Shown one piece after another: positions 7,039 to 60,810 of a DNA stretch of 64,000 bases. Position 1 is the first letter of the stretch. Each line of letters begins with the position of its first letter. The DNA is from Candidatus Omnitrophota bacterium (GTDB lineage: Bacteria; Omnitrophota; Omnitrophia; Omnitrophales; Aquincolibacteriaceae): positions 1,964 to 65,963 of the forward strand of contig DAOSLF010000008.1 in the NCBI GenBank assembly GCA_035368605.1, given 5' to 3'. A model generated the notes under the pieces. That model saw nothing but the letters and a program-made list of their open reading frames with translations, searched no databases and was not told the origin of the DNA. A program made the translations under genes and the position numbers.

Positions 7039-7060
7039 ATGGAGATCTGGCGAATGAATC

Positions 7061-13536: not shown

Positions 13537-13581
13537 GGCCTGTATGATACTCCATCCCCGCGCTCCGGTCCAAGGGCCGCC

Positions 13582-15933
13582 TCACGGCCGGTTCGGCCGA
13601 TTCCGCGCTCCGGGATCTTGCCGCGGGAACCGGCTTGACTTCGGAGCCTCTTCGTAAACGGGGAGCGTCAGCGTGAACGTCGTCCCTTCACCAACCTTTG
13701 ATTTCACGGCGATGGTTCCCCCGTGCAGTTCAATGATGTATTTGCACATGTAAAGGCCGAGGCCGGAACCCTTGCCGGACGGTTTTGTCGTGAACCCGTA
13801 ATTGAAGATCTTTTTCCGGACTTCCTCCGTCATGCCGCCACCGTTGTCCGTGAAATAGATCGCGACCATCTTGGGGTTCTGCGCGTCGGGTTCCGCACGC
13901 ACCGCGATCTTCCGGTGACGTTTGCCCGCCATGGCGTGGTAGGCGTTGATGAACATATTAAGAAAAACCTCCTGAAGCCGTTCGAGGTCCCCCCGGATGA
14001 GCGGGATACTGCCCGGCACGTTGAAATCCACCTCCGTCCCGGACAGGTTATCCAGATAGGTCTGGAACTGGACAAGCGGCAGGGTCTCTTCGAGTATCAG
14101 CTTGAGCGAGAGCGGCTCGAACTTGCCCTTTTCCGATTTCTTGAGAAGTCCCGTCAGCGTATTCACCACCGCCTTGATACGCTCGACGTTCTTTTCCATC
14201 TTGTCGAAAACATCAGCGATCTCGGCCACCTTCACATCGGGATCCTTCCTGTATTTCAGGATCGCCCGCGACACATTCATCGAAAGGATCGTAAGAGGGT
14301 TGTTGACCTCGTGCCCGACGGACGCCGCGAGGCGCCCCAGGGTCGCCATCTTCTGTTCGTGGATCAGCTGCGCCTGCGCGTCCTGGAGCTGTTTGTTCGC
14401 GCCTTCCGCTTCATCCAACGCCCGCTCAAGCAGCCCGCGCGAACGTTCGAGCTGCTCGTTGATCTGTTCGAGATCGAGCGAGCGGCGTTTGGTCTCGTCA
14501 TAGAGTCTCGCGTTCTCGATCGCGATGGCGGATTCCTGGGCAAGCGTGCAAAGGAGGTTCAGGTCTTCGGTCGAATAGTATTCCCCCGATTTCTTTTCGC
14601 CGAGCAAGAGAATGTTTTTCAGCTCCCGCCCCAGGAAGCTCGGTACGCAGCAGGTCGTCTGAAGGTACATCATGCGATCGCGGATCGCCTCGTAATCCCA
14701 AACGGATCCCTCCGTTTTCTTCCGCCGGTACTTTACGTCTTCGATCTTTTCCCGGATGCGTTCAATATCGACCGATTCTTTGTGGTGCGCAATGTAGTCG
14801 ATGAGGGGGTCGTCCTCATTCAGAACCAGCGAGTAGAACTTCTTGTCGTAACCGCGCTGGTAGGCAAGGTTGAAATCATTGCTTTTCGGATCGCGGATCA
14901 GCACCGCGGCATTGCGAACACGCATCTTCATCGTCACGAAGTGGATGACGAGACCCAGCAAGCGTTCAAGCGACTCGATATTTGACATCCCGCGCGATGC
15001 GTCTTTCAGGAGCTTGTGATAATCATGTTTTTTCCGGAACAGGAACCTGTCCGTAAGGTTAGCCAGCAGCTTCCGCGCCGGATCGAATCCGAGCACCACA
15101 AGGAACATGACCGCGAACCGGGCCCAATAGATCTGGATTCCGGAATACGGATCGAGAAGCTTCTGAATGCCGAAGGTACCGAGAAGCAGGACCAGGGACA
15201 TGAAGCCCCAAAGCCCCGCGAAGATCACCGTATTCCTCAGAAGTTTTTCGATATCCAGGAAACGATACCGGGAAATCGAGCACATCGCAACGAAGCTGAA
15301 GAGCGCCACGCCGTAGGGGCCGTAAGGAAAAGGGAAAAACCCGAGGCCGTAGACAGGCAGGAAACAACCGATCCCGCCCAGATATCCGAGCAGGTTCGCG
15401 CCCGTGAAGAACAGGGCCTGTTTTTTCCGGGCTCCTTCAAAGCTCAGCGCGGCCCTGATCAAAATGGTATGGGTGTAGAAGACCGTCACGCAAGAGAAAC
15501 CGAACCAGGCCGTGTATAACTTCCCGGCATCCGGAAAAAAAGGGAACCCGAACTTGGACGAGACCCCCGAAAAAAAGAGTTGGGGAAAGAAAAGAATGAC
15601 CGCCAGAAAAAAAAGGGTGCTGATGTCAAAGGCGCGAACCACCGGCGTCGTCTCTTTCCGACCGACATAAACGCACGTGAAATGCAGGAAAAAGACGGGG
15701 ATCAGGGCGGCGCCGGCATGGAAAAGCTGGCTAAAAAAAAGCGAGGCCGCCGGATCCCGGACGGTCGTCGCCAGCAGAACGAAGATCGCCCAGAAAACGA
15801 TGGCGCTCCCGTAGTGGACGAACTTGCGAATGATGACCTGATTGCTGCCGCGGTAAAAAACGATCCCCACGAGGGTCAGATTGACTAGGGCGGTAAAGAA
15901 AGTGGCAAACTGGTAATGATTAGCGGGGCTCAT
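13582..15933 (-). CDS. sensor histidine kinase: N-terminal polytopic membrane domain + GAF + HisKA + HATPase_c
   Basis: About 8-10 N-terminal TM helices. GAF-like middle region. H-box HEVNNPLTIL. N/G1/G2 boxes (NAYHAM, DNGGGM, GSGLGL). 783 aa. Confidence 0.85.
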   Translation of the reverse strand: MSPANHYQFATFFTALVNLTLVGIVFYRGSNQVIIRKFVHYGSAIVFWAIFVLLATTVRDPAASLFFSQLFHAGAALIPVFFLHFTCVYVGRKETTPVVRAFDISTLFFLAVILFFPQLFFSGVSSKFGFPFFPDAGKLYTAWFGFSCVTVFYTHTILIRAALSFEGARKKQALFFTGANLLGYLGGIGCFLPVYGLGFFPFPYGPYGVALFSFVAMCSISRYRFLDIEKLLRNTVIFAGLWGFMSLVLLLGTFGIQKLLDPYSGIQIYWARFAVMFLVVLGFDPARKLLANLTDRFLFRKKHDYHKLLKDASRGMSNIESLERLLGLVIHFVTMKMRVRNAAVLIRDPKSNDFNLAYQRGYDKKFYSLVLNEDDPLIDYIAHHKESVDIERIREKIEDVKYRRKKTEGSVWDYEAIRDRMMYLQTTCCVPSFLGRELKNILLLGEKKSGEYYSTEDLNLLCTLAQESAIAIENARLYDETKRRSLDLEQINEQLERSRGLLERALDEAEGANKQLQDAQAQLIHEQKMATLGRLAASVGHEVNNPLTILSMNVSRAILKYRKDPDVKVAEIADVFDKMEKNVERIKAVVNTLTGLLKKSEKGKFEPLSLKLILEETLPLVQFQTYLDNLSGTEVDFNVPGSIPLIRGDLERLQEVFLNMFINAYHAMAGKRHRKIAVRAEPDAQNPKMVAIYFTDNGGGMTEEVRKKIFNYGFTTKPSGKGSGLGLYMCKYIIELHGGTIAVKSKVGEGTTFTLTLPVYEEAPKSSRFPRQDPGARNRPNRP

Positions 15934-16615
15934 GAGAAAAAAGACGCCTTAAAGCTTTCCAGGGAAACAAGGCTCTGGTCTCGTTCATGCACACAACATA
16001 AGATTCCCCTACCTTGCGGACATGGTTCCTTTCTTCTCCCGGGAGCCACGTGTACTGAAGCGGGATGTACAGGCAAAGAGCGAAAAGGAATCCCAGGATC
16101 GAGTTAAGAATAAGCGGAATGCTCAGGACCTCCAGGAAAATAGCCGCGCAAATCGGATGATGGATGTACCTGCAGGGCCCAAGGCGGATCACGCCCTCTT
16201 TGCTCGCTTTCCCGGCGCCGATCGCATGGACGGCCCACTGGCTTCCGAGCGCCTTCATCCCCCACCACCGCAAGCGGAAGGAAACGGCATAAAGGATCAC
16301 TCCGATCACCGTAATAGCCAGGGAAAGCGCGGGTCGGAAGATGAACCCCTCCGCACAGCTCAGAAAACAAAGAACAATGTAGGCCGGCGTTGTCGCGATA
16401 AGGGTCCAGTCGCCGTGCAACTCGCACGGACGCCGTTCCTTGGGCGTGTAAAACGTTTCCCACACCCTCTCAAATGAATGGAGGACAATGAAGACGAGAA
16501 AAAAAAGACGGAAAGTTCCTTTTTCGGAGAGGGCAAAGAAAATGCCGGCAAAAAACGGGACCCCCACCGCGCCCAAAAATGCCGGGGCCTGGATCCAGGA
16601 TGTTTTTTTTGACAT
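15920..16615 (-). CDS. ICMT/PEMT-family integral membrane methyltransferase (isoprenylcysteine carboxyl methyltransferase-like)
   Basis: Polytopic protein with C-terminal GVIRLGPCRYIHHPICAAIFLEVL matching the RHPxY...EE SAM-binding motif of ICMT/phospholipid methyltransferases. 231 aa. Overlaps the histidine kinase start by 14 bp. Confidence 0.6.
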   Translation of the reverse strand: MSKKTSWIQAPAFLGAVGVPFFAGIFFALSEKGTFRLFFLVFIVLHSFERVWETFYTPKERRPCELHGDWTLIATTPAYIVLCFLSCAEGFIFRPALSLAITVIGVILYAVSFRLRWWGMKALGSQWAVHAIGAGKASKEGVIRLGPCRYIHHPICAAIFLEVLSIPLILNSILGFLFALCLYIPLQYTWLPGEERNHVRKVGESYVVCMNETRALFPWKALRRLFSHEPR

Positions 16616-16619
16616 GATT

Positions 16620-17066
16620 TCAATCCCTCCGATGGTAGTCGGGGATCACGGCTAATATTTCCCCAGGGACCGGGGCGAACCCATTACGCAGGGAATCCAC
16701 GAATACGACCGCATACCCGGTCCTGCAAAAGAGATCGCCGCTGTTTTTCCGGTAGAACGAAACGATCATATCGAAACTGACGCGACCGATCTTGCCGACC
16801 GTCAACCGGGCCTCGATCGAATCGCCAAAACTCGCCCCCGGGAACATCTCGAGATTAATCTTGCTTGCCATCATCTTGATCGGGCGGGACGACACCTCCG
16901 GAAAACTATCGATCGTTGACTGGAAAAAAGCCTCCCGGACATAATTGGTCCACTCGTCAACGACGATCAGATCCACGGTTTTTTGGGCAAGGGAGATCGC
17001 TTCTTCCCCGCTTCGCGCGACCGGCACACGGCGCCTTGTTTTTTCAGCAACTGCCCGACCGAACAT
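16620..17066 (-). CDS. hotdog-fold (4HBT/YbgC-like) thioesterase; 5' region appears frameshifted relative to an upstream receiver-like start (see findings)
   Basis: C-terminal SFGDSIEARLTVGKIGRVSFDMIVSFYRKNSGDLFCRTGYAVVFVD matches 4HBT thioesterases. N-terminal VARSGEEAISLAQKTVDLIVVD looks like a receiver domain. A strong RBS+ATG at 17109 opens a receiver-like start (MPKTILLVDD) in another frame. Confidence 0.5.
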   Translation of the reverse strand: MFGRAVAEKTRRRVPVARSGEEAISLAQKTVDLIVVDEWTNYVREAFFQSTIDSFPEVSSRPIKMMASKINLEMFPGASFGDSIEARLTVGKIGRVSFDMIVSFYRKNSGDLFCRTGYAVVFVDSLRNGFAPVPGEILAVIPDYHRRD

Positions 17067-17216: not shown

Positions 17217-19403
17217 TCACGATCGCGGGAATCGGATCACAAACACAGAACCCTTCCCGGGTTCAGACTGGGCCGTAATCGAAGCCCCGTGACGTTTGAG
17301 GATTCCGAAGCTCACGGAAAGACCGAGACCGGTCCCTCCCCCCACATCTTTAGTCGTAAAGAAGGGGTCAAAGATCTTCTTAAGGTTCTCCTTTGAGATA
17401 CCGATGCCGTTATCGGTCACGCGAAGCTCAACCGCCTCCCCCGCCTCTTGTATGCCAACCACGATCTTTCCCGTACGCTTCGCGGCCAGGATAGCATCCT
17501 TCGCATTCACGAGGAGATTCGTAAAAACCTGTTCCAGCTCGCCGGAGATCCCTTTTACGGGAGGCGTGTCCACAAGCTCGGTCTCGATCGTGATATTCTC
17601 CTGCTGGAACTGGAACTTGAGGAGGGCAACCGTGCTTTTCACAACCTCCCGAAGGTCCGTGTCCTTCAGCGGGGATTCTTCCGCGGTCTTCCGGGCGTAT
17701 TTCATGAGCTTCTGCACGATCCCCTGACAGCGCTTCGCCCCCTCCTCGATCAGCGAGATCGATTCCATATCGTCTTCCCCCGCACTCATGCGGAGGATCT
17801 GGGCATTGGTGAGCACCGCCGTAAGCGGATTATTGATCTCATGCGCCACGCCGCCCGCGAGTGTGCCGAGCGTGGCAAGCTTCTCGGCCTGCACAAGCTG
17901 TTCCTGCATCTTCGCGAGTTCACGCGTCCGCTGATCCACCCTCTCTTCCAGGACCTGGTTCCAAAGCTGAAGTTCATCGCTCAGTTTCCGGATATCCTCA
18001 AACCGCACCGAATTCGAAAGGGCAATCGTGACGGGCACCTTGAGACGGTTCAGGAAGTGAATCTCGTTAAATCCGTAGCGGCGCAGGTTGCTTTTTCGGC
18101 CGAGATTCGCAAAGCCGATAAGCCGCCCTCCCAGAACAAACGGTAAAATGACCTGAGACTGTGTTTCCGCAAAAAACGACTCCAGCTCGGATTTAAATCC
18201 TCCCACCGCCGGATCGCTCACAACAAGCGTTCCGACCACGGCCCCGTCCGTCGCGGTCAGCCACTCCAGGAGCGGGCTATGCCCCACGACCGGGCGAAGG
18301 TTCCGTATTCCCTTTGCGATCGCGGGAAGGAATCTCTTGGTCGAATCGTCATAAAGATAAACGGAAAGGCGGCGGACAAAAAGCTCGTGGCGCAGCAGGC
18401 GCGCGAAGCTTTGGAGGAGGTCCCGGAGATTCTTCAGATGCACGAGCTCGGCCGAAAAGCGCTCGAGGACGGCCATCAGGTTCGTATGCTGCCGTTGAAA
18501 AAGTTTCCCCAAACGCGGCTGGACCGCCCGATAGTAGAAATAGAACACAAAGAGCATCGCGAGAAAATAAAGGCTCGCGGCCAACGGACTGAGGTCCGCC
18601 ATCATCGGCTGTATCGTATAAATGATACCGGCGAACGGAAGCACCGCGACTGCGCTCGTCGTAACCCACATCACCGTCATGTGAATCGCGGTCTCGATAT
18701 CCATGAGACGGTAGCGGATCACGCAGTACCCGATGATCGTCGTAAAAAGGAACATGGGAAGGAACGCAACGGGGAACGCACGGATGCCGTAATTGGGAAG
18801 ATATTCGATGGAACCAAGAAAGGCGATCGCATAGGCAATGAACATCAGCTTTGTGTTCTTCTTGAGAAGAGGTGCTTCGGCCTCGCGATGGATGCGCAAA
18901 AAATTCTTGAAGGAAAGGATCATGAGGGCGTAGAACCACACGATGAAAACGGCCTCAAGCGGTCCCGCCTTCGGGAAAAAGCCGGTCGGATACGGATACA
19001 TCCCTTCCACGATCCCGGGCGTCAGGCCGCAGATAAGGTAGAATCCGAGCGCGCAGAGGTAGTGGAAGACGATCCATTTCACCTTGCGCCTGAAAAGGCT
19101 GGCGTTCCAGGTCACGATGAAAAAGTACACGGCAGGCGTGATGAAGATGATGCCGAACCAGGTATACCATCGCGAGAAAACGGTCGCGACCGCCTCATCC
19201 GTCATCGAACACGCGATCCCGACGCCCGTGAGCCAGATGCCGGCCGTGACATTCGTCACCGTGTAGGCGATGTGCGTCACGGTCTTTTTCCCCTGAAAAA
19301 GCACAAAGAGCCCTTCGAGCGTGATCAGGACGCCAACGATGAAGTGAGGGAGGGCGTAGTTATTCCAGTAGAAAAGCTGCGGATCAAAAATAGAGTTCAT
19401 CAT
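17217..19403 (-). CDS. sensor histidine kinase: polytopic membrane domain + GAF + HisKA + HATPase_c (paralog of 13582..15933)
   Basis: About 10 TM helices at the N-terminus. GAF region. H-box [11 protein letters not shown]. HATPase G-boxes ([14 protein letters not shown]). 728 aa. Confidence 0.85.
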
Positions 19404-22046
19404 GATGGATGGCCCGGTTCATGACATCATGAAGGACGTTCATGTACTTTTCAACCTTTTCCCGAGGTCCCTTCATGCTCACCACGCCGACCCGACCTCC
19501 GTTCGCGGCGGGAAGGGAAAAATTGCTGAACGCGATAAATCCGTCCGTATGGACATCGCTCGCGGGAGCGACAAAAAAATCCGCTTTTTTTATGATCGTG
19601 ATCCCGAGCGAGCCGACGAATTCCTGAAGAGGCCGCATCAGGAATTTCGACGTGGCTTCGTAGAGAACCGCCGGCGCCGGCGTATAGGCTTCAAGGAGAG
19701 CGTAGCTTTCGCTCCTTCGCTTCCGCGTGGCGAAAAGCTGGCGGTTGAATTCCTGCTGAAACGCGAAGAAGCCGCGGTCGGGACGGTGTTTATCGAAATA
19801 AATACCGGGCCGTATGAAGATGAACCCGAGCGTCCGGCCGCGATCTCCTGCGGCTCGCAGATCGACGGGGATCGCGAACTTGATATCCTCGAACTCGCGG
19901 TATTGCGCCAACTTCCAGATCAATAGCGCCGCGGATGAAATCACCTGCTTGGCACGGCGGCCAAAGCGCTTGTTAAGCTCATTCCTCACCCGGAGAAACG
20001 GCCGGAAATCAAGGAACTGGTACGCGTGGAAGACGCCGCCGTCGCCCGAGGCCGTCGAACAGCGGTCCGGCACCATTCCCTCGCGATATCCTGAATCCGG
20101 AAACACAAACCCGCTGCGGACACCCCATTGTTTCTTAAGTTCGTTCAGGACCTCCTGGGAAGGGACGCCGTCCACCGGGACGTGACTGAACTGGAACCAA
20201 AGATCAGCCGAGCAAAGATCCGGTGTCATCCGGCATACGATGTTCAGGATTCCCGGTCCGGGATGCTTGGCGTCAAGGAACTGCGGCACCTGAAAACGGC
20301 TGGACGCTCCGATGGCAAGGGCCTGGGGAAGGATCTCAAAACGGACAAAAGCGGCGCTCAATATCCGGCCGCTGAAATCCCTGGCCCGCTCCTTCCATTG
20401 CACCGGAATGGCAGCGGACTTCCGGGAAAACCATTTCTTCCATTCCCGCGCGAGGAGGATCGGCCTTTGCTTGTCCGGCTTATCACCGGTCGCATTGTAG
20501 GCCTGGATGATCCCGTCAAGGAGGAGCGTTTTGAGATCGGCCGGCATCTCTTCAAACCCCTCACCCCCCGTTCCCGGATCGATCAGGGGTTCCAGACGAA
20601 CCAGTTTTCCGGATCCGTCAAAGTCGGCTTTTACGATATCCAGCAGGCCCTTTGGTTCCGCCTTCGCGCAAAACCGCCTCCACGCGAGCCGGTAGTGAAA
20701 CATCGGCTGTGACCGGAGGAACTTCGCGAGTCTTTGGATACAGTGCCGCTTGGCCGCCGCGGGGGACCGATCCCGATGATCCGGTGCGTCCGACCAGAAG
20801 TCGAGATCAAAAACGGCCAACGCGAACTTGGCCTGTTCGGTCCTCAGGTAGGATTCCGTCACCCTGCGCCAGCCGTCCAGTCCTTTTCCCGCCCCGGCTT
20901 TACGAAGCAAACCAAGAATCCTGACGATGGCAAAAAAGAACAGGGTTCCGAAATTCAGCCGGTCCGTGTAGCGATCCATCCGAAATTTACGCATGATGTA
21001 CGGGATGATCCGGGGACCGTGCGCCCGGATGCGAAAGATTCCCCGGGGTTCCACATACCCGTTCTTCCGGTACCAAGCGACCGCTTTCGCGAGCGTTTTG
21101 CGCAGCGGGGTCGCGGGATAACCGAGCTCCCGGACCGCTTTGGAACCGTCATAGGCGCCGGTCTTCAGGCAGAACCTGATGCCCTCGGTCGGCATGAGCG
21201 GTTTTTTCCGGAACGCATAATGCGAAAGGAACTCATCGATATACGTGAAGCAAAAAAGAGCCCAGTAAGGAATCCGGATTCTCGGTGCCCGGACCCCGGA
21301 AACTTGCTCCAGCGCGCGAAAGATCTCTTTAAGGGTCGGATGATCCGGGTTCGCGAGAATGTAACGCTCGCCGATCCTCCCCTGCTTTGCGGCGGCGATA
21401 TGGGCCTGGGCAACGTCATCGGCATCCGCCACGCTCCACCGGGTGTCAAAATACCCCGGATAGCTTTGATTCAGGAATTTGACGATCACATCGCCCGTCG
21501 GGGTGGGCTTGTGATCGCGCTCACCGATCACGATCGCGGGATTCAGGATCACCGCGGGAAGCCCTTTCGCGCAATACTTCAAAACTTCCTGTTCGGCCAA
21601 AAACTTGGAGCGGGCATAATGGCTTGCGCCGCGCTCCCTGAAACCGGCGCTTTCATCCGCGGGTTGCCCGTCGCTTCGCGCGTTGATCGTCGCGATCGTA
21701 CTGGTATGAACAAACTTCCGGACCCCGTACTTCAGAGAGGCCGACAGCATATGGACCGTGCCATCCACGTTGATCCGGTACATGGCTTTGGGGTTTTTGA
21801 TCCAGAAAGGATAAAAGGAGTAAAGGGAGGCGAGATTAAAAACGATCGAACATCCCTGAACGGCCGTTTCAACGGCCTGAAGGCTCGTAACATTGCCATT
21901 CACCACTTCAACATCAAGATGTTCGAGCAGGAGACTGTCCCGACGCTGGCGCACCAGGACCCGGACTTGATATCCGGCGGCGAGCAGATGACGGACAAGG
22001 GTCGAACCGATAAAACCCGTGCCGCCCGTCACCAGAACTTTCATGA
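19384..22046 (-). CDS. bifunctional fusion: N-terminal NAD(P)-dependent epimerase/dehydratase-type (CCR/3beta-HSD-like) reductase + C-terminal HxxxDG acyltransferase (WS/DGAT- or condensation-like)
   Basis: MKVLVTGGTGFIGSTLVRHLLAAGYQVRVLVR Rossmann motif with a YxxxK-type SDR core (YARSK). C-terminal about 430 aa carries FQFSHVPVDGVPS, compared with the HHxxxDG catalytic motif of wax-ester synthase/condensation domains. Start set at the internal Met at 22046; the 37-codon N-terminal extension was judged spurious. Confidence 0.55.
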
Positions 22047-22162
22047 TCTCAAACACCCCCGGAACAGACCGGGGGGCAACTCCGGGATGCCCCCGATCCG
22101 GATTCGCGTGACCGCTATCGTTTCCACGGGACCAAACCCCGGTTGGGAAACGCATCCCGCCA

Positions 22163-23740
22163 CTACGACTTCTCCGCCATTTTACCGATCGCGATGATCT
22201 CCTGATCGATCAGCTGCCGATGCCCCCAGAAAAAGGGCGCCAGGCGGAACCCGTGCTTGTTCGCAAGGCGGAGAATCTCATCCATCTTCTCTTTCGTGAT
22301 ATGTCCCTTCCCCCACGAATAATTCTCATACCGGCCTTCGAGCGCCAGGACCATGGCTTCGGAAAAACAACCGTAGAGCACCCTGCGAGACGGCAGTCCG
22401 ATATCGAATCCCGTATTGAACTCCACGGGAAGTTCGCAAATGCCGCCCGCGAAGATCAGGATGTCGTGACGGTCCGTTTCCGCATAAGCGATGTTCTTGG
22501 GATACCCGACGTCGCACACGATCGCGCCCGGTTTGAAGCTCGAGATCTCCACGATGGATTGCGGCGCGCTTGCGGCGGCGATCACGATATCCGCGTCCTT
22601 CACCGCATCGTTGTTGTCGTGGCTGCCGCGAAACTTCGCACGGCGAACGGCCTTGATGGCCCTCGCCATCTTCTTCAGATTATGCGGACTACGGCTCGTG
22701 ACGGTCACTTCCCTGGTCATCGAGGCAAGCACCCGCGCGCACGCACTGCCAATATCGCCCGCTCCGCCAATGACCGTGACCTTCGCCCTGGCAAGGTCCA
22801 CTCCCATGAGCCCCGCGGCCTTCACCACCCCTTCGACCGCCAGGGCGGCCGTAAGCGTATTGCCGGTCGTCACCGGAATCCGGACCTGTTTGAGGAATGA
22901 CTTCCCGAAGCGTTCTCCGGCGATCGAGGTAAAACCTCCCAGGGCCACGATCCCCAGACCATGACGTTCCGCCACCTTGCAGGAATCGACCACCTTCCGG
23001 ATCACGTTCTCCATATCGAGGGCCAGCATTTCGGGGATGATATTACAGACGATGAAAGCCCCGCGAGTCACCGCACCGCTTTCCGCCCGGAACTCCTTCA
23101 CATCGTACGAAACGTAGGAGGGCATGAGATCGAAGATCTTCGCGAGAAAGCCCTGGGACGGTAATTTAAAATCCGGATTGAAGGACCTGAGATAACTCAC
23201 GAGATGCTGGAAATTGTAGGGATGACCGATCACGCCGAATCCCGATACCGCGCGAAGCGGCCGGGTGCCCGCCTGACCGTAACGGCATTCAATGAGCGCA
23301 TTCTCGAAGGACCGGAGCAGGGTTTCGAAGAACCCGCGGATTTTCTCGGTGACCATTCCCCCGACGATCTGGTCCATAACCGGGATTCCGAGACGGATCG
23401 CCGCTTCCACCGTGATCTCCGTGCTGTCCGATGGCCCTTCCGCCAGGATCCAGCGTCCCTCGAAGCTCTCCAGATCACCTTCCAGTGCCCTGAACCGCAC
23501 GGTAAAACTCCGGTACTCGAAAAAAGCCTCTTCCCGCCATTGGATCGGCAATCCGTCTATCTGGACCTTCCAGGAGGTAACCGAGCGTTTCCGGTCACGG
23601 TCGACGATATGACACTCCTTGATGGCAGGTAACAGGGACGGGAAGTCCTCCACCCGCGTCAGCAGACGAAGAACCTGCCAGCGCTTCGCGGGCAGAACCC
23701 GGCTGATCTTGATAAAAGAACTGCTTTCTGAACCTGACAT
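22163..23740 (-). CDS. fusion of SRPBCC (polyketide-cyclase/START-like lipid-binding) domain with long-chain acyl-ACP reductase (AAR)-like domain
   Basis: N-terminal 150 aa has the SRPBCC pattern. The rest aligns motif-for-motif with cyanobacterial acyl-ACP reductase as recalled from memory: FGVIGH, ALGGFTSI, TTGNT, GGAGDIGSACARVL, DVGYPKNI, CFSEAMVLALEGRYENYSWGKGHITKEKMDEILRLANKHGF. Confidence 0.65.
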   Translation of the reverse strand: MSGSESSSFIKISRVLPAKRWQVLRLLTRVEDFPSLLPAIKECHIVDRDRKRSVTSWKVQIDGLPIQWREEAFFEYRSFTVRFRALEGDLESFEGRWILAEGPSDSTEITVEAAIRLGIPVMDQIVGGMVTEKIRGFFETLLRSFENALIECRYGQAGTRPLRAVSGFGVIGHPYNFQHLVSYLRSFNPDFKLPSQGFLAKIFDLMPSYVSYDVKEFRAESGAVTRGAFIVCNIIPEMLALDMENVIRKVVDSCKVAERHGLGIVALGGFTSIAGERFGKSFLKQVRIPVTTGNTLTAALAVEGVVKAAGLMGVDLARAKVTVIGGAGDIGSACARVLASMTREVTVTSRSPHNLKKMARAIKAVRRAKFRGSHDNNDAVKDADIVIAAASAPQSIVEISSFKPGAIVCDVGYPKNIAYAETDRHDILIFAGGICELPVEFNTGFDIGLPSRRVLYGCFSEAMVLALEGRYENYSWGKGHITKEKMDEILRLANKHGFRLAPFFWGHRQLIDQEIIAIGKMAEKS

Positions 23741-23856
23741 GCTGGCCTCCGGCTTAACCAGTTTTATCGGCCAGAAAACGCGTTTATTAACTTGCGTGCG
23801 GGAAGGAGGGCAGGATGCCGAACACGGTCAGCAATGAAGGCGGATTTTTCCAATAA

Positions 23857-23893
23857 AAAAGCAGCCCCGCCGGCGAAGGCGGGGCTGCTTGTC
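23857..23893 (-). terminator. rho-independent terminator downstream of the CBM-like gene
   Basis: Hairpin GCAGCCCCGCC-ggcgaa-GGCGGGGCTGC with a T-run on the minus strand (ttttttattgg). Confidence 0.55.
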
Positions 23894-23915: not shown

Positions 23916-24521
23916 TTACTGTCTTTCGAGAGAGACCTGATCGATGAAGATGGTCCCTGTCTTGGGGTTCGAGTTGATGTCATCGAACACCACGACGAAC
24001 TCGTTCAGCGAATTCCAGTTCTCGATGCGGCGGAACTTCTCGAAGGGAATGCAGACCTTCTGCCACTGATCGGTGATATCGCTCACGATGTACGGAGATG
24101 CTTTTCCGGACATATCCTTGAGCTCAAGCTTCACGCGCTTCGTGTAGCCGGTCTTCGCATCACCCTTGATAAAGAAACAAAGGGTGTTGTACGGGGTCGC
24201 ATCCTCGCCATTCATTTTCATCCAGAACCCGTTATACGCGGGATTCGGAGAATCAACGTCATAATCCAGACGGATCGAATAGCCCGCCGGATCACCCTTC
24301 GCATCATCCGTCGCGAAGGACATCACCGTGCCCTGGGTATCATCGTTCGGATCCTTGTCCCACCCGCCGAAATCACCGCCGATATTGTTCGGCTTGTCAC
24401 CGGTATCAAAATCAGCGATCACAAGCTCTTCAGCCGCGAACGCCGTCGGGAGAGAAAATCCAAATCCCAGCACCATCAAACAAACTAGGGGCAAAGCAAC
24501 AGCAAGTTTAAACATCTTCAT
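23916..24521 (-). CDS. secreted protein with carbohydrate-binding-module-like beta-sandwich domain (CBM4/9/11-like)
   Basis: Signal peptide MKMFKLAVALPLVCLMVLGFGFSLPTAFA. Trp/Asp-rich beta-sandwich pattern (IADFDTGD...GGWDKD...FFIKGDAK...TIFIDQVSL). AT-rich promoter region upstream. 201 aa. Confidence 0.45.
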   Translation of the reverse strand: MKMFKLAVALPLVCLMVLGFGFSLPTAFAAEELVIADFDTGDKPNNIGGDFGGWDKDPNDDTQGTVMSFATDDAKGDPAGYSIRLDYDVDSPNPAYNGFWMKMNGEDATPYNTLCFFIKGDAKTGYTKRVKLELKDMSGKASPYIVSDITDQWQKVCIPFEKFRRIENWNSLNEFVVVFDDINSNPKTGTIFIDQVSLERQ

Positions 24522-25705: not shown

Positions 25706-28700
25706 TTATGTGTTTGTGCGGCGTTTATTGAACAAAAAAAAGCTTCCATCCCGGATGGCCGACACCCCCGCCTGGAGCAGATGCGTTATATCATCCACGC
25801 AAAGGACAAAGGCCGGAAGAACGAAAAGGGTCAAAATGGTTGAACTGATCAACCCACCAATAACCGTAATGGCAAGCGGGGCCCAAAGATCGCTCGCCTG
25901 GCCAAAACTCATTGCCATCGGGAGAAATCCGAGAACGGTCGAGGAAGTGGTCATAAAGATCGGCCGCAAACGGTCCATGCCCGCCATCGTCCACTTTTCC
26001 TCTTCGGGCATTGAGGTATCCAGATGCTGGTAGCGATCGACCAAAAGGATCGCCGCGTTCACGACATAACCCGCGAGCAGGATGATCCCGATAAAAACCT
26101 GCGTGCTCAAGGGGCGCGGCTGAGGCAGCCAGGTGATCCACGAGTCAGGTATCCCAAGCAGCTTAAGCGGCCACGTGATCAGCAGCGACCACCGCAGGGC
26201 AAGCCAGACCCCAATCGTTGCCATGGGAACCGTCGCCATGATCAGGGCCGGGAAGCGATAACTCTGGAAAAGGCACGCCATGACCATGAAGATCAGAAAA
26301 ACGGTCACCACGACGGCCAATCCGAGCTCGGATTTGCTCTGCATGAGCTCTTCAAATCCGCCTCCGAATCTCCAGTAGTAGTCGTCCGGAAGTTTTACAT
26401 CCTGGATGGCCTTTTTGACGTCCTTGGCGATGAGCTCGATCGGACGTTTTACGTCCCCCTTCACGAAGACATACCGGTGCTTGTCCTTCCGGTCAATGGT
26501 CTGAGGCCCGGTCGAAGGATAGAAATTCGCGATCTCGCTGATCGGGATCTGCGTGTTCTCCCTCGTTTCGACATAAATCTGTCCCAGATCCTCGAGCTTC
26601 TGCCGGTAGATCGCCTGGAGACGCGTGATCGTTTCGATCTCCTCCCCTTTCGAAAGCTCATGGAACTTCGTCGGCCGCATCCCGCGCACGAGCGCGTGCA
26701 TGCTGTCCGCGACGGATTTCACGGAAAGCCCGTACATCGCGGCCTTCCCCTTGTCCACGACAAGCGAATATTCGGGGCGTTTACGGAGGTCGGTCATCAC
26801 GAGGTTTGACAATCCGTCGACCTTGGACATGCGGTTGGCAAACTCCTTGGCGAGCCTTTCGAGTTCATCGCCGTCCTGCCCGTAGATATTGATGACCAGC
26901 TTCTTCGATTCGGAAGAACCCGCGCCCTCGTCCACGATCAGGCTGTAATCCGGATGGATCTCCTTGATCGCGGCATTCCCCTGTTCGTCGATCAGCTTCA
27001 TGATCTCATCCTTTGAGAATAGCCTCTTCCGCTGGGGTTTGAGACGGACAAAGAGCCGCAGGTCATCTTTCGAAACGGTCGTGGAGAAAAGCGTCACGTC
27101 GGGTATCTTGGAGAGCAGTTCCTCGATTTTCTGCATGGCTTCGTCGTTCGATTCAAGCCGCGCTCCCGCGAGCGGGAATGTGATAACCGCGAACTCGTTT
27201 TCCTCGAAGGAAGACGGCCAGTCGATCGGCGTCTTGGCAATCCCGAAAATCCCGAGGCAACAGGCGACCACCATAATCCCCACCACAAGCCAGCGGGCGC
27301 GGAAGACCCCGTGGAGCGCTCCTTGATAAAGATCTTTCATCTTATGGATGAAGCGATCCGAAAGAGTCTGGGTACGGGCATCGAGCTCGGCCACAGCGAA
27401 CTGCTTTATCAGCATCGGGATCAGCATCAAGGCCGAGAAAAAAGAGGCGATCAGCGCCACGCAGATTGTGAACGCAAAACCTCCGTAGGTCAGCTGAATG
27501 GTCTTGTCGATAAAAACGATCGGCAGAAACACGACCAGCGTTGTCGTCATGGACGCCAAAAGCGGGAGCCAGACCTCTTCGCTTCCGTCACGGATCGCAT
27601 GCGCCGCGGAGGCCCCGCCTTCCCTTTTGGAAAATATGTTCTCCATAATGACCACCGCGGTATCCACCAGGAGACCGACCGCCAGTGAAAGACCGGAAAG
27701 CGTCATCACGTTGATACTGATGCCCGCCGCCGCCATACAGATGAATGTGGCCATGAGAGAGGTAGGGATCACAACAAGGATGATCGCGGAAAGACGCCAG
27801 CGCATGATGTAAAAATAGATCACCCCCATGGTCAGGACCAACCCAATGAGCAGTGCCAGTTTGACATCATCGATCGCCCGTTTGATCGCATCCGCCCGGT
27901 CGTTGACGAAGACGATTTTGATCGAATCCTTGTGATCGGCCTCGAAAGCGTCCAGAACCCGCGTCAGGTCGTCGGCCACATCCAGCGTGTTCGCGAGACT
28001 CGCCTTTTTGACGTAGACCGTAACGTTCTGTTCCAGGTTGAGGCGGGCCTGGTCCGTCGCCTCGAGGTAGGAATCCTTGACCGTCGCGATCTCTTTCAGG
28101 GAAATGATCGATCCCTGTCGCGTCGCTTTCACGCCGAGCTCCCCGATCTCGTCCACGGTCAGGAACGACCCCATGCTCCGGATCGCGTACTCGTATTTTC
28201 CCGTCTCGACGTTCCCGGCGAGGAGATTGATGTTGCTCTGACCGAGTACGTCCATGACGCGCTCCACCGAAATGTTATAGGCCACCAGTTTGTCCCGGTC
28301 GAGTTCGACAAGGATCTTCCGTTCGCGTCCTCCGTAGACCTCGACGCTCGCGACGCCGTCCACGCGGCTCAGGATCGGCTTCAGCTTGATATCCACCATC
28401 TCACGGATCTGTTCGGGCGTCATGGAATCCGAGGTGACTGCGAACACGAGAATGGCCGCCTGCGCGTCGTCATAGTTGGCAATGACCGGCTTTTCGATCT
28501 CCTTCGGGAGAAGTGGCCGCACCCGCGCGAACTTCTCGCGGATTTCGAGCGCCGCGAAGTTCATGTTGGTTCCCGGTTCAAACTCCATCGTCACGCGGGA
28601 TTCGGCCTCGCGGGAACTCGAATAGAGGTTCTTCATTTTACTGACGGTCCCGACGGCTTCCTCGATGGGCTTCGTGATCATTTTCTCAACGTCCTGGGAA

Positions 28701-28867
28701 GGCAGACCGCCGCGGGCGCGGACCACGATGCTGACGATCCCCTGGCTCTGGCCCTGATAAAGCTCCACCTTGAGACGCATCAGGGAGATCATCCCGAGGA
28801 CAAGGACAGCGGCAAAGATGATGGCCGTAAAAACCGGCCGCTTGAGGGAGACGCTCGGGAGGCCCAT
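25706..28867 (-). CDS. RND efflux transporter permease subunit (AcrB/MdtC-like), second of tandem pair
   Basis: 1053 aa, 12-TM HAE-RND architecture with two large periplasmic loops. Conserved TM4 region (AAAGISINVMTLSGLSLAVGLLVD). Confidence 0.9.
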   Translation of the reverse strand: MGLPSVSLKRPVFTAIIFAAVLVLGMISLMRLKVELYQGQSQGIVSIVVRARGGLPSQDVEKMITKPIEEAVGTVSKMKNLYSSSREAESRVTMEFEPGTNMNFAALEIREKFARVRPLLPKEIEKPVIANYDDAQAAILVFAVTSDSMTPEQIREMVDIKLKPILSRVDGVASVEVYGGRERKILVELDRDKLVAYNISVERVMDVLGQSNINLLAGNVETGKYEYAIRSMGSFLTVDEIGELGVKATRQGSIISLKEIATVKDSYLEATDQARLNLEQNVTVYVKKASLANTLDVADDLTRVLDAFEADHKDSIKIVFVNDRADAIKRAIDDVKLALLIGLVLTMGVIYFYIMRWRLSAIILVVIPTSLMATFICMAAAGISINVMTLSGLSLAVGLLVDTAVVIMENIFSKREGGASAAHAIRDGSEEVWLPLLASMTTTLVVFLPIVFIDKTIQLTYGGFAFTICVALIASFFSALMLIPMLIKQFAVAELDARTQTLSDRFIHKMKDLYQGALHGVFRARWLVVGIMVVACCLGIFGIAKTPIDWPSSFEENEFAVITFPLAGARLESNDEAMQKIEELLSKIPDVTLFSTTVSKDDLRLFVRLKPQRKRLFSKDEIMKLIDEQGNAAIKEIHPDYSLIVDEGAGSSESKKLVINIYGQDGDELERLAKEFANRMSKVDGLSNLVMTDLRKRPEYSLVVDKGKAAMYGLSVKSVADSMHALVRGMRPTKFHELSKGEEIETITRLQAIYRQKLEDLGQIYVETRENTQIPISEIANFYPSTGPQTIDRKDKHRYVFVKGDVKRPIELIAKDVKKAIQDVKLPDDYYWRFGGGFEELMQSKSELGLAVVVTVFLIFMVMACLFQSYRFPALIMATVPMATIGVWLALRWSLLITWPLKLLGIPDSWITWLPQPRPLSTQVFIGIILLAGYVVNAAILLVDRYQHLDTSMPEEEKWTMAGMDRLRPIFMTTSSTVLGFLPMAMSFGQASDLWAPLAITVIGGLISSTILTLFVLPAFVLCVDDITHLLQAGVSAIRDGSFFLFNKRRTNT

Positions 28868-28870
28868 GCG

Positions 28871-31800
28871 CTAGTCCCCGGGAAGGGACTCTTCTTCGGC
28901 TCCGGCCGCAGGGGACAGCTCCTCCTCATAGCCGAGGAACCTTTCAAAGCCCCTGTTTACGAGGATATAAAGGCACGGCAGGACGACCAGAGTGAGGAGC
29001 GTGGAAGAAAAAAGGCCGCCCATGGCGGTCACAGCCAGCGGCGACAGAAGGTCGGCACCTTCACCCGACAGAGCGAGCGCGACCGGCAACATGGCAAGGA
29101 TGGTCGTCGTTGCCGACATCAGAATGGGACGCGTACGGGTCTTCACGGCCTCCCACACGGCATCGACCATTTCCTTCCCTTCGGCACGTAGCTGATTGAT
29201 GTATTCCATGAGCACGATACCGTTGGCCACGACGACCCCGCCAAGCAACACGAGCCCGAGAAGAGAAATGACGTTCAGCGTGTTCCCCGTCAGCTTGAGA
29301 GCCAGAATCGCGCCGCCGAAAGAAAGAGGCACGGTGACCATGATGATGAGCGGTTGGAGGAACGATTCGAACTGGGCCGCCATGATCATGTAGACGAGCA
29401 TGACCGCGAGCATGAACGCGAACGTCACTCCGCCGAAGTTCTCCTTGATCTCCTTCGCCTTGCCGGACAGCTTGACCTGGAAATCCTCGGGGATATCGTC
29501 CGGCACCTTGAGACCGGCGAGGAACCGCTGGAGATCCGCCAGGACGTCCTTGTCCTGGCGCGATTTGTCGATATCGGCTGAAATGGTCACGGTGCGCTCC
29601 TGGTCGGCACGCTTGATCTCACTCGGCCCCTGGCCACGCTCGATCACGACGAGCTCTTTCATCGGGACATGGACATCGAGAATCTTGGAATAAAGAAGCA
29701 GGTCCCCGAGACCTTCGATATCGGAGCGGTCCTTCTCACTCAACCGGACGCGGACATCGAACTCCCGCCCTCCCTCGCGAAACTGGGTGGCCACCACGCC
29801 CTCGATCGCGGCCTTCGCCGTCAGGGAGATATCAAGGGCAGAGATACCGTAAAGCGCCGCGCGTTTTTTATTGATATCCAGCTTGGTCTCGGGGGATTTT
29901 TCGCCGATGTCATCCTCGATATGGATGATCCCCGGAATACCCGACAGCTTTGATTTCAGCCGCGAAACAAATTCATCCATGATCCTGAAATCATACCCCT
30001 TGACCTCGATCAGGATGGGCTTGACCGCCTGCGTGCCAACCGCGAACTCGCTTTCCTGGAGGACATATTCGACCTTGGCGCTCTCTCTTTCGAGACCAAG
30101 GGCATCCGTTTTTTTCTTCAGGGATGCGACCACGGCGGATGATGTCCTTTTCCGGTTCTGATTGAGGGTCACAAGAATCTGCCCCTGGGACGGGCGAAGC
30201 GTTTCGATCTTGATCTCGCCTCGGCTCGTTTTTTCGCTACCGATCGCAACCGAAATGTCCTTCACGTCCTCTTCTTCACGGAGGACTTCCTCGACCCGCA
30301 TGCAAACCCTGTCGGTGACTCCGAGACGTGTCCCCAGCGGCATGCTCACCTTAACATAGAATTGTCCCTGGTCGGTTTTCGGGAGTACTTCGCGGTCCAT
30401 CGTGGGAACAACAAAGAATGTCGACGCAAGGATCACAAAAACGATTATCAGGACGCTACCCATGATCCCGTTCTGGGCCCCGTGAGTCGGCTGGCTTCGA
30501 ACGCTCCGTTCAAGCGGGGCCAGAAGATCGATCGGCTGATAGTCCTGCTGTTTGATCATAACGTAAGTGGAAAGCAGCGCCACAAGGGTAAGCGGGATGA
30601 ACGTTGAGATGATCTGCGAAAAAATGATGCTCCAGGCAAGGTCCTTGAAGATCTGACCTGCTACGCCGGGAACGAAAACGATCAGGGGGAAAAAGACAGC
30701 GATCGTCGTGAGGTTCGAGGAGATCACGGGCCAGACGACCTCCGCGGCGCCTTCAATCGCGCCCTGTTCCGCGTTCATGCCGGCCTGACGTTTTCGGAAA
30801 ATGTTCTCCAGGACAACGATACTCGTGTCCGTGATCATGCCGATCGCGATCGCGAGCCCGCCAAGGGACATGATGTTGACCGTCACATTCGACAGCGCCA
30901 TCAGCAAAAAGACCCCGAGAATGGTCAGCGGCAGGGATACAACGACCAGCACCGACATCAGGAAGCTTTTGAGATACGCCCACAGGGTGATCAACGCGAG
31001 AATACCGCCCTGGGTGGCCTCGTGGGCGAGGTTCTTGATCGTATTGCGGATAAAGACCGAATGGTCGTAGATAATGTCCACCTTGACGCCGCGGCTCACA
31101 AGATCCTCTTCGAGGAAATCGAGCTCCTTGCGAAGGCGATCCACGGTCTGGATTGTGTTCGCGTTTGACTGTTTCTGGATGGAGAGCGTGATGTTATCCG
31201 CCCCGTTGAACCGGGAAATACTCGTCTTGTCCGCGAGCCCGTCAGTCACCGATCCGATATCCTTGACAAGGACCAGCCGCTTCTCAAGCATCTTTTTCTC
31301 GATCTCTTCGCGGGAGCGGTCGATCGTGAGGCGCGGACCTTCCGTGTCATCGCGTTCGATAAAACTGATCTCCTCACGGCGGACCTTCGCGACATCATCG
31401 ACGCCGACCACGGCAAAACTGATCTCGGAAACCGTCCGGAAATCCCCGACGGTCCTGATCAGGTATTCGTAAAGACCTTTTTTAATACTGCCCGCCGGAT
31501 AGGAGACGTTCGCCTCGTCCAGGGAATCAACGACTTCAAGAAGCGACCGGTGGTTGGCCTGCAGGCGCGGCATGTCGATATCGACGAGAATCTCCCGGTT
31601 CACGCCGCCCGAAATCGCTACGGACGCGACCCCTTCCACTTTTTCGAGACGGTCCTTGAGCATTTTTTCCGTGAGCATCTTGAGACGGACCGGAGGAAGC
31701 TCGGCGCCGGTCACGGAAAGCATGAGGATGGGGCGTGAGAGCGGATCGAATTTCAGAACAACCGGGTCATCGGCCTCTTTGGGAAGACGCTCCTTGATAA

Positions 31801-32140
31801 GATCGACCTTCTCGCGAACCGCAAGGGCGGCAAAGTCGATGTTCTGTCCCCAATTGAAAGACGCGATAATCGTGCTGCGTCCCTCGCGCGACACCGACTC
31901 GATCCGCTTCAGACCGGCCACCGAACCGATAGCTTCCTCAATCACACGCGTGATGAGAGTCTCAATCTCCTCAGGGGCGGCATTGGAATAATCCGTCACG
32001 ATGGTGATCTGGGGAAATGTGATGGGAGGGAAAAGCTCCTGCGGAAGTTTCTGAAAGGAAAGAAAGCCCAGGAGAACCAGGAGGGCGGACAACATGTAAA
32101 CCGTGACTTTTTTCTTAATCGAGAATTCGGGTAAACTCAT
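28871..32140 (-). CDS. RND efflux transporter permease subunit (AcrB/MdtB-like), first of tandem pair
   Basis: 1089 aa, HAE-RND architecture. SNVTVNIMSLGGLAIAIGMITD TM4 motif. Followed 3 bp later by the second RND gene. Confidence 0.9.
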   Translation of the reverse strand: MSLPEFSIKKKVTVYMLSALLVLLGFLSFQKLPQELFPPITFPQITIVTDYSNAAPEEIETLITRVIEEAIGSVAGLKRIESVSREGRSTIIASFNWGQNIDFAALAVREKVDLIKERLPKEADDPVVLKFDPLSRPILMLSVTGAELPPVRLKMLTEKMLKDRLEKVEGVASVAISGGVNREILVDIDMPRLQANHRSLLEVVDSLDEANVSYPAGSIKKGLYEYLIRTVGDFRTVSEISFAVVGVDDVAKVRREEISFIERDDTEGPRLTIDRSREEIEKKMLEKRLVLVKDIGSVTDGLADKTSISRFNGADNITLSIQKQSNANTIQTVDRLRKELDFLEEDLVSRGVKVDIIYDHSVFIRNTIKNLAHEATQGGILALITLWAYLKSFLMSVLVVVSLPLTILGVFLLMALSNVTVNIMSLGGLAIAIGMITDTSIVVLENIFRKRQAGMNAEQGAIEGAAEVVWPVISSNLTTIAVFFPLIVFVPGVAGQIFKDLAWSIIFSQIISTFIPLTLVALLSTYVMIKQQDYQPIDLLAPLERSVRSQPTHGAQNGIMGSVLIIVFVILASTFFVVPTMDREVLPKTDQGQFYVKVSMPLGTRLGVTDRVCMRVEEVLREEEDVKDISVAIGSEKTSRGEIKIETLRPSQGQILVTLNQNRKRTSSAVVASLKKKTDALGLERESAKVEYVLQESEFAVGTQAVKPILIEVKGYDFRIMDEFVSRLKSKLSGIPGIIHIEDDIGEKSPETKLDINKKRAALYGISALDISLTAKAAIEGVVATQFREGGREFDVRVRLSEKDRSDIEGLGDLLLYSKILDVHVPMKELVVIERGQGPSEIKRADQERTVTISADIDKSRQDKDVLADLQRFLAGLKVPDDIPEDFQVKLSGKAKEIKENFGGVTFAFMLAVMLVYMIMAAQFESFLQPLIIMVTVPLSFGGAILALKLTGNTLNVISLLGLVLLGGVVVANGIVLMEYINQLRAEGKEMVDAVWEAVKTRTRPILMSATTTILAMLPVALALSGEGADLLSPLAVTAMGGLFSSTLLTLVVLPCLYILVNRGFERFLGYEEELSPAAGAEEESLPGD

Positions 32141-32229
32141 CGCAAGCAGGATCCTGCCATTGGATTTGTCAGTCGCCCGTCAAAGCAACCTACGGTACCG
32201 TTAGCCCAAACAATGAAATTGAAACGGTG

Positions 32230-57775: not shown

Positions 57776-57826
57776 ATTCCTCCGTTCCGGCTTCCGGGAA
57801 CGCCGGTCACTTGCCTTGGCCTGTCT

Positions 57827-60794: not shown

Positions 60795-60810
60795 CGTCCC
60801 GTCCCCGCCT

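Follow-up and report, generated by a model that had tools for sequence, protein, structure and literature searches.

The 64,000-nucleotide (nt) stretch of DNA analysed here (the window; positions 1,964 to 65,963 of contig DAOSLF010000008.1 of a Candidatus Omnitrophota bacterium) carries on its minus strand a gene for a protein of 525 amino acids (aa), in which an SRPBCC domain is fused to a reductase domain that belongs to the acyl-ACP reductase (AAR) family. The fusion gene is followed by a gene for a protein that joins a short-chain dehydrogenase/reductase (SDR) domain to an acyltransferase-like domain named X (SDR-X), and then by a gene for a membrane-bound histidine kinase (HK1). The features of these genes are listed below.

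23859-23890, minus strand: strong intrinsic-terminator-like hairpin with a 13-bp stem, 10 GC pairs and a T tract
23741-23858: leader of the fusion gene, which holds the GGAGG site
22163-23740, minus strand: SRPBCC-AAR-like fusion gene, 525 aa, ATG start
23276-23719, minus strand: SRPBCC/START helix-grip domain, aa 8-155, placed by Pfam, the structural model, Foldseek and orthologue conservation
22166-23239, minus strand: AAR-family (COG5322) NAD(P)H-dependent thioester-reductase domain, aa 168-525, placed by NCBIfam, PDB search and Foldseek
22748-22768, minus strand: GGAGDIG dinucleotide-binding loop, aa 325-331, equivalent of G162-ATGDIG-168 of AAR
22367-22369, minus strand: Cys458 codon, aligned with catalytic Cys294 of S. 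elongatus AAR (the acyl-enzyme nucleophile; PMC7089970)
19384-22044, minus strand: SDR-X gene, 886 aa from Met38 of the open reading frame (ORF) 19384-22155, database start at 22044
21052-22044, minus strand: HpnA-like extended SDR domain with TGGTGFIG and YxxxK motifs
19387-21048, minus strand: X domain, HxxxDG acyltransferase, C-terminal 554 aa, HVPVDG motif at 20167-20184
17217-19403, minus strand: histidine kinase HK1, overlapping the SDR-X stop by 20 nt

A GGAGG ribosome-binding site lies 6 nt 5' of the ATG of the fusion gene. The terminator-like hairpin sits between the fusion gene and an upstream gene for a secreted protein, on the 3' side of the latter, and the fusion gene was therefore taken to begin its own transcription unit. 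The Rfam scan of the entire window returned two tRNAs only, with no riboswitch or leader RNA at the fusion gene. The encoded protein is identical to GenBank OQA42142.1/HOE68840.1 from a Candidatus Omnitrophica metagenome-assembled genome, deposited under the automatic names "Long-chain acyl-ACP reductase" or "SRPBCC family protein". An AlphaFold2 model of it, built on 80 orthologues, reached a pLDDT of 90 and a pTM of 0.86.

The identity of the N-terminal domain was established by profile and by structure. Pfam Polyketide_cyc (PF03364) matched aa 17-135 with 46.8 bits against a cut-off of 23.4. In the model, this part forms seven strands and a long C-terminal helix at 122-155, a helix-grip fold. 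Foldseek analysis of the N-terminal part returned TTHA0849 (2D4R) as the top match (TM-score 0.91), followed by polyketide aromatase/cyclases and PR-10 proteins, with thebaine synthase also among the structural likenesses below TTHA0849. W57, W68, F83, G88-D89-L90, G95 and W97 are invariant across the 80 orthologues, and aromatic residues (W21, W57, W68, F83 and W97) are frequent among the conserved positions. The fusion of an SRPBCC domain to the N-terminus, proposed in a preliminary description of this DNA made from the sequence alone, is real and conserved. The fold is common to the Coq10/RatA/TTHA0849-type proteins of PF03364; unlike in those proteins, the SRPBCC domain is here covalently joined to a reductase.

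For the C-terminal part, the phmmer search against the PDB gave S. elongatus AAR (6JZQ) as the top match (E 4.8e-42, aa 168-499), with C458 in the same alignment column as the catalytic C294, a column confirmed by the entry of the C294S mutant (6JZZ). Foldseek also ranked AAR first (TM-score 0.84 on the target, 31% identity), followed by the carmabin TAD, and Pfam recognized a Rossmann region at about aa 310-420. The matches to AAR and to TTHA0849 in fold and sequence are far beyond chance. All motifs on which the preliminary description had based its AAR-like alignment are present, namely FGVIGH (168-173), ALGGFTSI (266-273), TTGNT (291-295), GGAGDIGSACARVL (325-338), DVGYPKNI (410-417) and CFSEAMVLALEGRYENYSWG (458-477). 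The profile comparison that it had suggested returned AAR (TIGR04058, E 1.8e-51) and PigE next to 6JZQ as the best matches, and not aspartate-semialdehyde dehydrogenase, for which Pfam gave an E value of only 0.0026.

Mapping onto the structures of Gao et al. 2020 (PMC7089970) placed G162ATGDIG168 of AAR on G325GAGDIG331, Y247 on Y413 and H7 on H173 of the fusion protein. Among the residues that bind the NADPH 2'-phosphate or the coenzyme A (CoA) phosphate, R189 (R350) and R314 (K478) are kept and R193 (N354) is not kept. The segment aa 187-193 aligns with the tunnel exit of AAR (M21, Y23 and Y26). Across the 80 orthologues, C458, whose presence the preliminary description had asked to be checked, is invariant, as are T291-T292-G293, the glycines of the GGxGDIG loop and H173; R350 is nearly invariant. 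The two proteins thus share the three-subdomain fold, the catalytic Cys, the TTG, the GxxGDIG loop, the Tyr/His pair of the acyl tunnel and two of the three phosphate-binding basic residues. Judged by these residues, the reductase domain looks catalytically competent. The fusion protein is very probably an active thioester reductase, and its predicted product is probably a long-chain aldehyde.

The fusion protein is assigned by sequence to the AAR superfamily (COG5322) and not as an orthologue or equivalog of AAR, because its TIGR04058 score of 175.5 bits is below half of the equivalog cut-off of 449.7. The preliminary description, which had read this part as an AAR-like enzyme, is thus supported in the likeness, with the limit that the protein is no AAR equivalog. 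Its statement that AAR normally stands alone does not always apply to the family, in which transaminase fusions (PigE/KecF) and TAD domains of nonribosomal peptide synthetases (NRPS) exist. The PigE model NF053554 matched over the reductase part only (profile positions 2-354 of 837; 168.7 bits against a cut-off of 850), and no aminotransferase domain was found in the fusion protein by Pfam and NCBIfam scans.

An orthologue of cyanobacterial AAR that feeds an aldehyde-deformylating oxygenase (ADO) encoded elsewhere in the genome would agree with the automatic AAR name of the identical GenBank protein and with the common catalytic machinery. The low TIGR04058 score makes such an alkane pathway extremely improbable, as do three further observations. 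In agreement with the preliminary description, no ADO (PF11266) was found by Pfam among the scanned ORFs of at least 118 aa in the 64-kb window (ten ORFs of 93-212 aa and the partial ORF 63494-64000 lay outside the scan). Mutation of R73, R79 or K80 of AAR abolishes ADO binding (PMC7089970); R79 (R248) and K80 (K249) are retained in the fusion protein, and R73 is replaced by Asp (D242). Finally, O2 is required by ADO, and the source name (ADurb.Bin) points to an anaerobic digester. The fusion protein differs from AAR (EC 1.2.1.80; PDB 6JZQ/6JZU/6JZY) also in its N-terminal SRPBCC domain, in its operon with a histidine kinase and in its occurrence in an anaerobic uncultivated phylum.

A substrate other than a fatty acyl thioester was also considered, either a polyketide or peptidyl carrier-protein thioester, as for PigE/KecF and the NRPS TAD, or an aminoacyl-tRNA, as for glutamyl-tRNA reductase (GluTR), with the SRPBCC domain acting as a catalytic cyclase or dehydratase like TcmN or ZhuI. 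The PigE score close to the AAR score, the fold common to TAD and GluTR, and the resemblance of the SRPBCC part to polyketide aromatase/cyclases and thebaine synthase, which rank after TTHA0849, are consistent with this. It is nevertheless very improbable, since R350 and K478 keep the NADPH/CoA phosphate pocket of AAR, a pocket that TAD blocks, since the neighbouring genes encode fatty-acid and lipid enzymes, and since no polyketide synthase, NRPS, carrier-protein or transaminase genes were found in the window or in the conserved neighbourhood. PigE and KecF (prodigiosin MAP, koreenceine) resemble the fusion protein in that an AAR-like domain is fused to an aldehyde-taking protein, so that the fusion channels the substrate (PMC8341465; PMC6498172); in the present protein, the partner is an N-terminal SRPBCC domain that does not use pyridoxal phosphate, rather than a C-terminal class III aminotransferase, and no secondary-metabolite cluster surrounds the gene. 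The TAD of CarI (PDB 9E4S) shares the AAR-like fold, the invariant Cys beside the nicotinamide and the Thr-Thr-Gly (bioRxiv 10.1101/2024.10.28.620694), and differs in its location within NRPS modules, in binding NAD rather than NADP or CoA, and in being only 15-18% identical.

The two-domain protein was found to be widespread in one phylum. More than 120 full-length homologues with 49-78% identity were found, nearly all from Omnitrophota. In a one-genome-per-species collection, 158 genomes encode a relative, a lower bound obtained by a pattern-based scan, and the best 80 of those relatives all span both domains and come essentially all from Omnitrophota. The exhaustive search of 1.8 billion representative proteins yielded 2974 relatives (E up to 1e-3). 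Among them are more distant proteins with the SRPBCC-AAR fusion (27-33% identity), numerous stand-alone proteins about 360 aa long, and others of about 700 aa whose N-termini are of unknown type. Some of the distant fusions are preceded at the N-terminus by PilZ or HTH_17-PilZ, and their PilZ parts carry RxxxR and (D/N)xSxxG, the motifs by which PilZ binds cyclic di-GMP (c-di-GMP). In one SRPBCC-AAR relative (P0174, 33% identity), which is probably a pseudoenzyme, the catalytic Cys is replaced by Ala and the nucleotide (GxGxxG) loop is degenerate. No publication on the SRPBCC-AAR architecture was found in the literature searched, in which COG5322 surfaced only for PigE/KecF-type fusions.

In three metagenome contigs, the SRPBCC part (145-182 aa) and the AAR-like part (about 361 aa) are encoded by separate genes that overlap by 4-8 nt:

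L095, 5992-7507: split SRPBCC/AAR pair, followed by a 7TM kinase gene
L096, 760-2287: split SRPBCC/AAR pair, followed by a 7TM kinase gene
L097, 377-1885: split SRPBCC/AAR pair, on a contig that ends within the AAR-like gene

These split and overlapping genes provide independent evidence that both domains work together.

Two groups of stand-alone relatives stood out. In one large group (L098-L167, e.g. L104:4556-7092), an AAR-like protein of about 362 aa is always preceded by a conserved 302-aa protein without family match, and the pair sits between dusB and greA-lysS in what appear to be Firmicutes contigs. In another (L105:1631-13089, also L138-L140), the AAR-like gene lies in an operon with signalling genes, which encode DUF4388, a Ras-like GTPase, an alpha/beta hydrolase, V4R, a hexapeptide transferase, REC-GGDEF and a seven-GAF protein.

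The conserved coupling of the fusion gene to a histidine kinase gene with seven transmembrane (TM) helices is the strongest contextual signal, and was absent from the preliminary description. When all ORFs of 85 loci were clustered, the commonest neighbour family was a same-strand histidine kinase of about 730 aa (77 loci), and a stand-alone receiver of about 125 aa follows the kinase in 58 loci; no DNA-binding response regulator is conserved in the module in these loci. Linkage was then counted over the 75 Omnitrophota loci with at least 1.5 kb of downstream sequence. The orthologous 7TM kinase is encoded within 3 kb on the same strand in 71 of them and directly adjacent in 50, commonly with overlaps of 4, 8 or 11 nt. 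Where it is not adjacent, one gene stands between, encoding SDR-X, an SDR alone or a GMC oxidoreductase. HK1 is the orthologue of these 71 kinases. Its N-terminal part (aa 1-290, nt 18534-19403) contains about seven TM helices joined by short loops and is followed by a GAF-like middle part, HisKA and HATPase_c; the orthologues carry the annotation HisKA_7TM plus GAF. The adjacency was also seen in further metagenome loci (L088-L096). For the PilZ- or HTH-PilZ-fused relatives (30% identical), a HisKA_7TM-GAF kinase gene follows directly in all three cases looked up, with a gap of 14 nt or an overlap of 4 nt. HisKA_7TM surfaced in the literature searched only in census or review mentions, and is taken here as a domain without known ligand. 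Other recurrent neighbours encode FabF, 4HBT thioesterases, a FadL-type outer-membrane protein, methyltransferases and RND/HAE3 transporters, and one clade of Omnitrophota has a PlsC-type acyltransferase gene that extends 11 nt into the start of the fusion gene (about 25 loci).

The tight coding overlap implies stoichiometric co-production of fusion protein and kinase, and could be read to mean that the fusion protein is a cytoplasmic ligand-binding partner (for an acyl-thioester, a lipid or NADPH) that modulates the 7TM kinase, with catalysis secondary or absent. SRPBCC proteins can be receptors, e.g. PYR/PYL; the HTH_17/PilZ fusions give some relatives the look of one-component regulators; and P0174 lacks the catalytic Cys and the nucleotide loop. 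Even so, an accessory role of this kind is quite improbable, because the residues for catalysis and cofactor binding show no or almost no variation across the window protein and the 80 orthologues, as in a working enzyme, and because tailoring enzymes (SDR, GMC oxidoreductase and acyltransferases) are inserted beside the fusion gene, which is sensible only if there is a product.

SDR-X is the gene next to the fusion gene in the window. Its mechanical ORF runs 37 codons further 5' (22045-22155) than the database start, and with the start at the Met at 22044 the gap to the fusion gene is about 118 nt. The SDR part matches HpnA (347 bits, just under the cut-off), the fatty-acyl-reductase family NAD_binding_4 and OleD; a hydrophobic segment is also present in the protein. 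The X domain matched no Pfam or NCBIfam model and was classed by fold comparison alone, through a two-lobed CAT-like fold together with the HxxxDG motif, of which H, D and G in HVPVDG are invariant among homologues. Only 47 homologues were found in 5.8 billion proteins, mostly SDR-X fusions, some stand-alone, and three with an alpha/beta hydrolase, one of them from Kiritimatiellaeota. These data suggest that the SDR part is a carbonyl-reductase SDR and X a new PapA5/WS-DGAT-like HxxxDG acyltransferase family, which is unlike PapA5 and WS-DGAT in its lack of a Pfam or NCBIfam match and in its fusion to an SDR or, rarely, an alpha/beta hydrolase. The chances are about even that a local route leads from the acyl-thioester through the aldehyde (fusion protein) to an alcohol (SDR) and on to an ester (X). 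The proposal of the preliminary description that the aldehyde feeds a different downstream pathway was borne out to the extent that the next genes point to another aldehyde fate. A hopanoid link suggested by the HpnA-like SDR and an MMPL transporter was rejected: the transporter is a generic HAE3 RND protein (71 bits against an HpnN cut-off of 752), and no other hopanoid genes were seen beside the two.

The TM domain of the kinase was found to change together with SDR-X. The comparison was made within a clade whose reductase domains are 56-84% identical. For the kinase TM domain, the median identity is 58.9% among loci that have SDR-X, 66.1% among those that lack it and only 34.8% between the two groups. 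No such split is seen for the GAF region (44, 83 and 56% with SDR-X, without and between), the kinase core (57, 72 and 67%) or the reductase domain (60, 65 and 63%). Sliding-window analysis located the breakpoint at about aa 240-280 of the kinase, where the TM region ends, and showed no group difference along the entire length of the fusion protein, SRPBCC domain included. The kinase TM domain thus occurs in two types that track the presence of SDR-X, indicating that tailoring gene and sensor domain change as one unit. This co-change with a constant reductase and pocket is what would be expected if the pocket holds a common aldehyde and the kinase TM domain recognizes the final product.

The reading that we prefer is an active lipid thioester reductase with its own pocket, functionally coupled to the kinase; taken loosely as a whole chain, it is given a probability of roughly 0.45. 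The fusion gene would encode a cytosolic two-domain enzyme in which a long acyl chain moves from a thioester (acyl-ACP or acyl-CoA) onto Cys458, by homology to AAR, and NADPH then serves to reduce the acyl-enzyme to a fatty aldehyde. Enzymes of the AAR family and GluTR hand their aldehyde on to a partner that is bound or fused to them (PMC7089970; PMC8341465). In the fusion protein, R73 is lost and a PF03364 domain is fused instead; the SRPBCC domain may fill the position taken by ADO for cyanobacterial AAR or by the transaminase domain in PigE. Tethered just upstream of aa 187-193, the counterpart of the tunnel exit, it would serve as a built-in hydrophobic pocket or chaperone that receives the poorly soluble aldehyde or, less likely, would present the acyl substrate. 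The co-transcribed SDR would most likely turn the aldehyde into an alcohol and X would most likely esterify it to a neutral, wax-ester-like lipid. The membrane domain of the kinase would detect the lipid of the module, as a signal or as a membrane change, so that synthase and receptor would form one lipid module. Gene order, translational coupling and the co-variation of the TM domain favour the direction in which the kinase senses the product, which is held only tentatively, at somewhat less than even odds. Within this account, the analysis shows the identity of the domains, their catalytic residues and conservation, the linkage of the genes and the joint variation of kinase TM domain and tailoring gene; the substrate, the product, the part played by the SRPBCC pocket, the chemistry of SDR-X and the direction in which information flows are inferred.

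Several points weigh against this reading. The TIGR04058 score far under its cut-off means that the substrate may be other than fatty acyl-ACP. P0174 indicates a non-catalytic role in some lineages. SDR-X occurs with the fusion gene in about 16 of the 85 loci only, which makes the ester route specific to certain lineages. The DNA of SDR-X directly adjoins the 5' part of the kinase gene, and co-transfer of a 3.5-kb cassette could give the same co-variation pattern; the repeat comparison with the GMC oxidoreductase as the inserted gene gave a weak signal only. The PilZ and HTH fusions fit equally well with the enzyme as a regulated output.

In that case the fusion protein would be an active acyl reductase for envelope or surface lipids (wax esters, or ether-lipid or alcohol precursors), controlled in its expression or activity by the kinase and receiver according to the membrane or envelope state, much as DesK-DesR act with des, with PilZ and c-di-GMP in a similar role in relatives; the kinase would not sense a specific product. 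The PilZ parts with RxxxR and (D/N)xSxxG, the overlapping PlsC-type gene, and the FabF, thioesterase, FadL-type and RND or HAE3 transporter genes nearby are consistent with this, and single-domain receivers often act on enzymes through protein contact. A generic membrane-state sensor, however, is not expected to switch its TM type with the tailoring enzyme; the module has no conserved DNA-binding response regulator; and an enzyme gene that comes first and is translationally coupled to the kinase is the usual synthase-receptor layout. On these grounds, such a regulated output is a doubtful account of the module.

The preferred coupling of reductase and kinase can be narrowed to a more specific proposal, in which SRPBCC-AAR would act as synthase for a class of lipid signal not known before, with the 7TM-GAF kinase as its receptor and the TM domain tuned to the derivative. 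The signal would be the fatty aldehyde or the tailored alcohol or ester, and the fused PilZ would let c-di-GMP gate signal production in some lineages. In this specific form the proposal is speculative and rather unlikely. Its layout resembles that of phcB-phcS-phcR, rpfF-rpfC, cqsA-cqsS and lqsA-lqsS, in which the gene of an enzyme with a fatty-acid product also adjoins that of a polytopic kinase, followed by receivers. Those kinases, like the one here, have no large periplasmic domain, and their sensor domain varies with the chemistry of the synthase, as the TM domain may do here. There is no sequence relationship between those synthases or sensors and the present module. The des-desK-desR system of Bacillus subtilis likewise places the gene of a lipid-modifying enzyme beside that of a multi-TM kinase; it differs in that DesR is DNA-binding and des a separate unit, whereas here the receivers are single-domain and the enzyme gene is co-transcribed upstream of the kinase gene.

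Downstream of HK1 lie four further genes.

16620-17066, minus strand: 4HBT thioesterase-like gene
15920-16615, minus strand: ICMT/PEMT-like membrane methyltransferase gene
13582-15933, minus strand: gene of a second HisKA_7TM kinase (HK2), overlapping the methyltransferase gene
13180-13536, minus strand: stand-alone receiver gene

The stretch 13180-17066 on the minus strand probably continues the gene string of the fusion gene, SDR-X and HK1. It forms a second set of lipid enzymes followed by a 7TM kinase, which recurs in L018, L044, L046 and L052, and could conceivably make a fatty-acid methyl ester. At L021:15745-16767, and also in L033, L070 and L074, a class I S-adenosylmethionine-dependent methyltransferase of about 340 aa is followed by a kinase of about 750 aa and a receiver. 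This repeat stands after the set of fusion, kinase and receiver genes, and its layout recalls phcB-phcS-phcR; for a PhcB-like identity of the methyltransferase, there is a weak BioC-like match only.

The remaining features of the window are as follows.

23916-24521, minus strand: secreted 201-aa protein with a signal peptide and no family match
9275-11626: HAE3-type RND transporter
36317-39808, 43726-47235 and 47236-50745, minus strand: three very large ORFs of 1163, 1169 and 1169 aa
4286-6448, minus strand: REC-PAS-GGDEF-EAL protein gene
6956-7133, minus strand: two tRNA genes (Rfam)

In 33 loci, a gene for this secreted protein is a conserved upstream neighbour of the fusion gene. It was rejected as a part of the module, given the strong terminator between the two, the variable spacing elsewhere and the lack of a family match. 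Upstream of the module, 25706-35719 on the minus strand holds all parts of an RND efflux system, with two pumps of the AcrB type, a membrane fusion protein and an outer-membrane factor, and such a set is also found upstream in 25 related loci. The three very large ORFs had no Pfam match and no significant NCBIfam match. The second and third of them stand in tandem with equal length, and all three lie upstream of type II secretion/type IV pilus genes (54748-62334).

The SRPBCC-AAR architecture, its phylum, the kinase pairing and the X family were absent from the literature searched, and the sequences had already been deposited under generic names. To our knowledge, AAR has been described almost exclusively for its part as the first enzyme in alkane synthesis by cyanobacteria and for its use as a biofuel tool. 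The proteins described here point to a large non-cyanobacterial branch of the AAR family, which may answer the problem of an insoluble aldehyde in another way, with a lipid pocket fused to the enzyme in place of an ADO or transaminase partner. Product release limits AAR, and the fused pocket therefore matters for enzyme engineering. With the X domain, the PapA5/WS-DGAT acyltransferase superfamily gains a family that had not been classified. The pairing with the kinase offers a concrete candidate source of a ligand for HisKA_7TM, a sensor family without known ligand. Omnitrophota are a widespread phylum, so far uncultivated, of very small and in part host-dependent bacteria of which the physiology is hardly known, and the pairing hints at lipid-based signalling or a dedicated control of envelope lipids in them. 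If the fusion protein and the kinase are indeed synthase and receptor, lipid signalling would be common in Omnitrophota and related candidate lineages, by a logic analogous to that of PhcB/PhcS, RpfF/RpfC and CqsA/CqsS and built from unrelated sequences.

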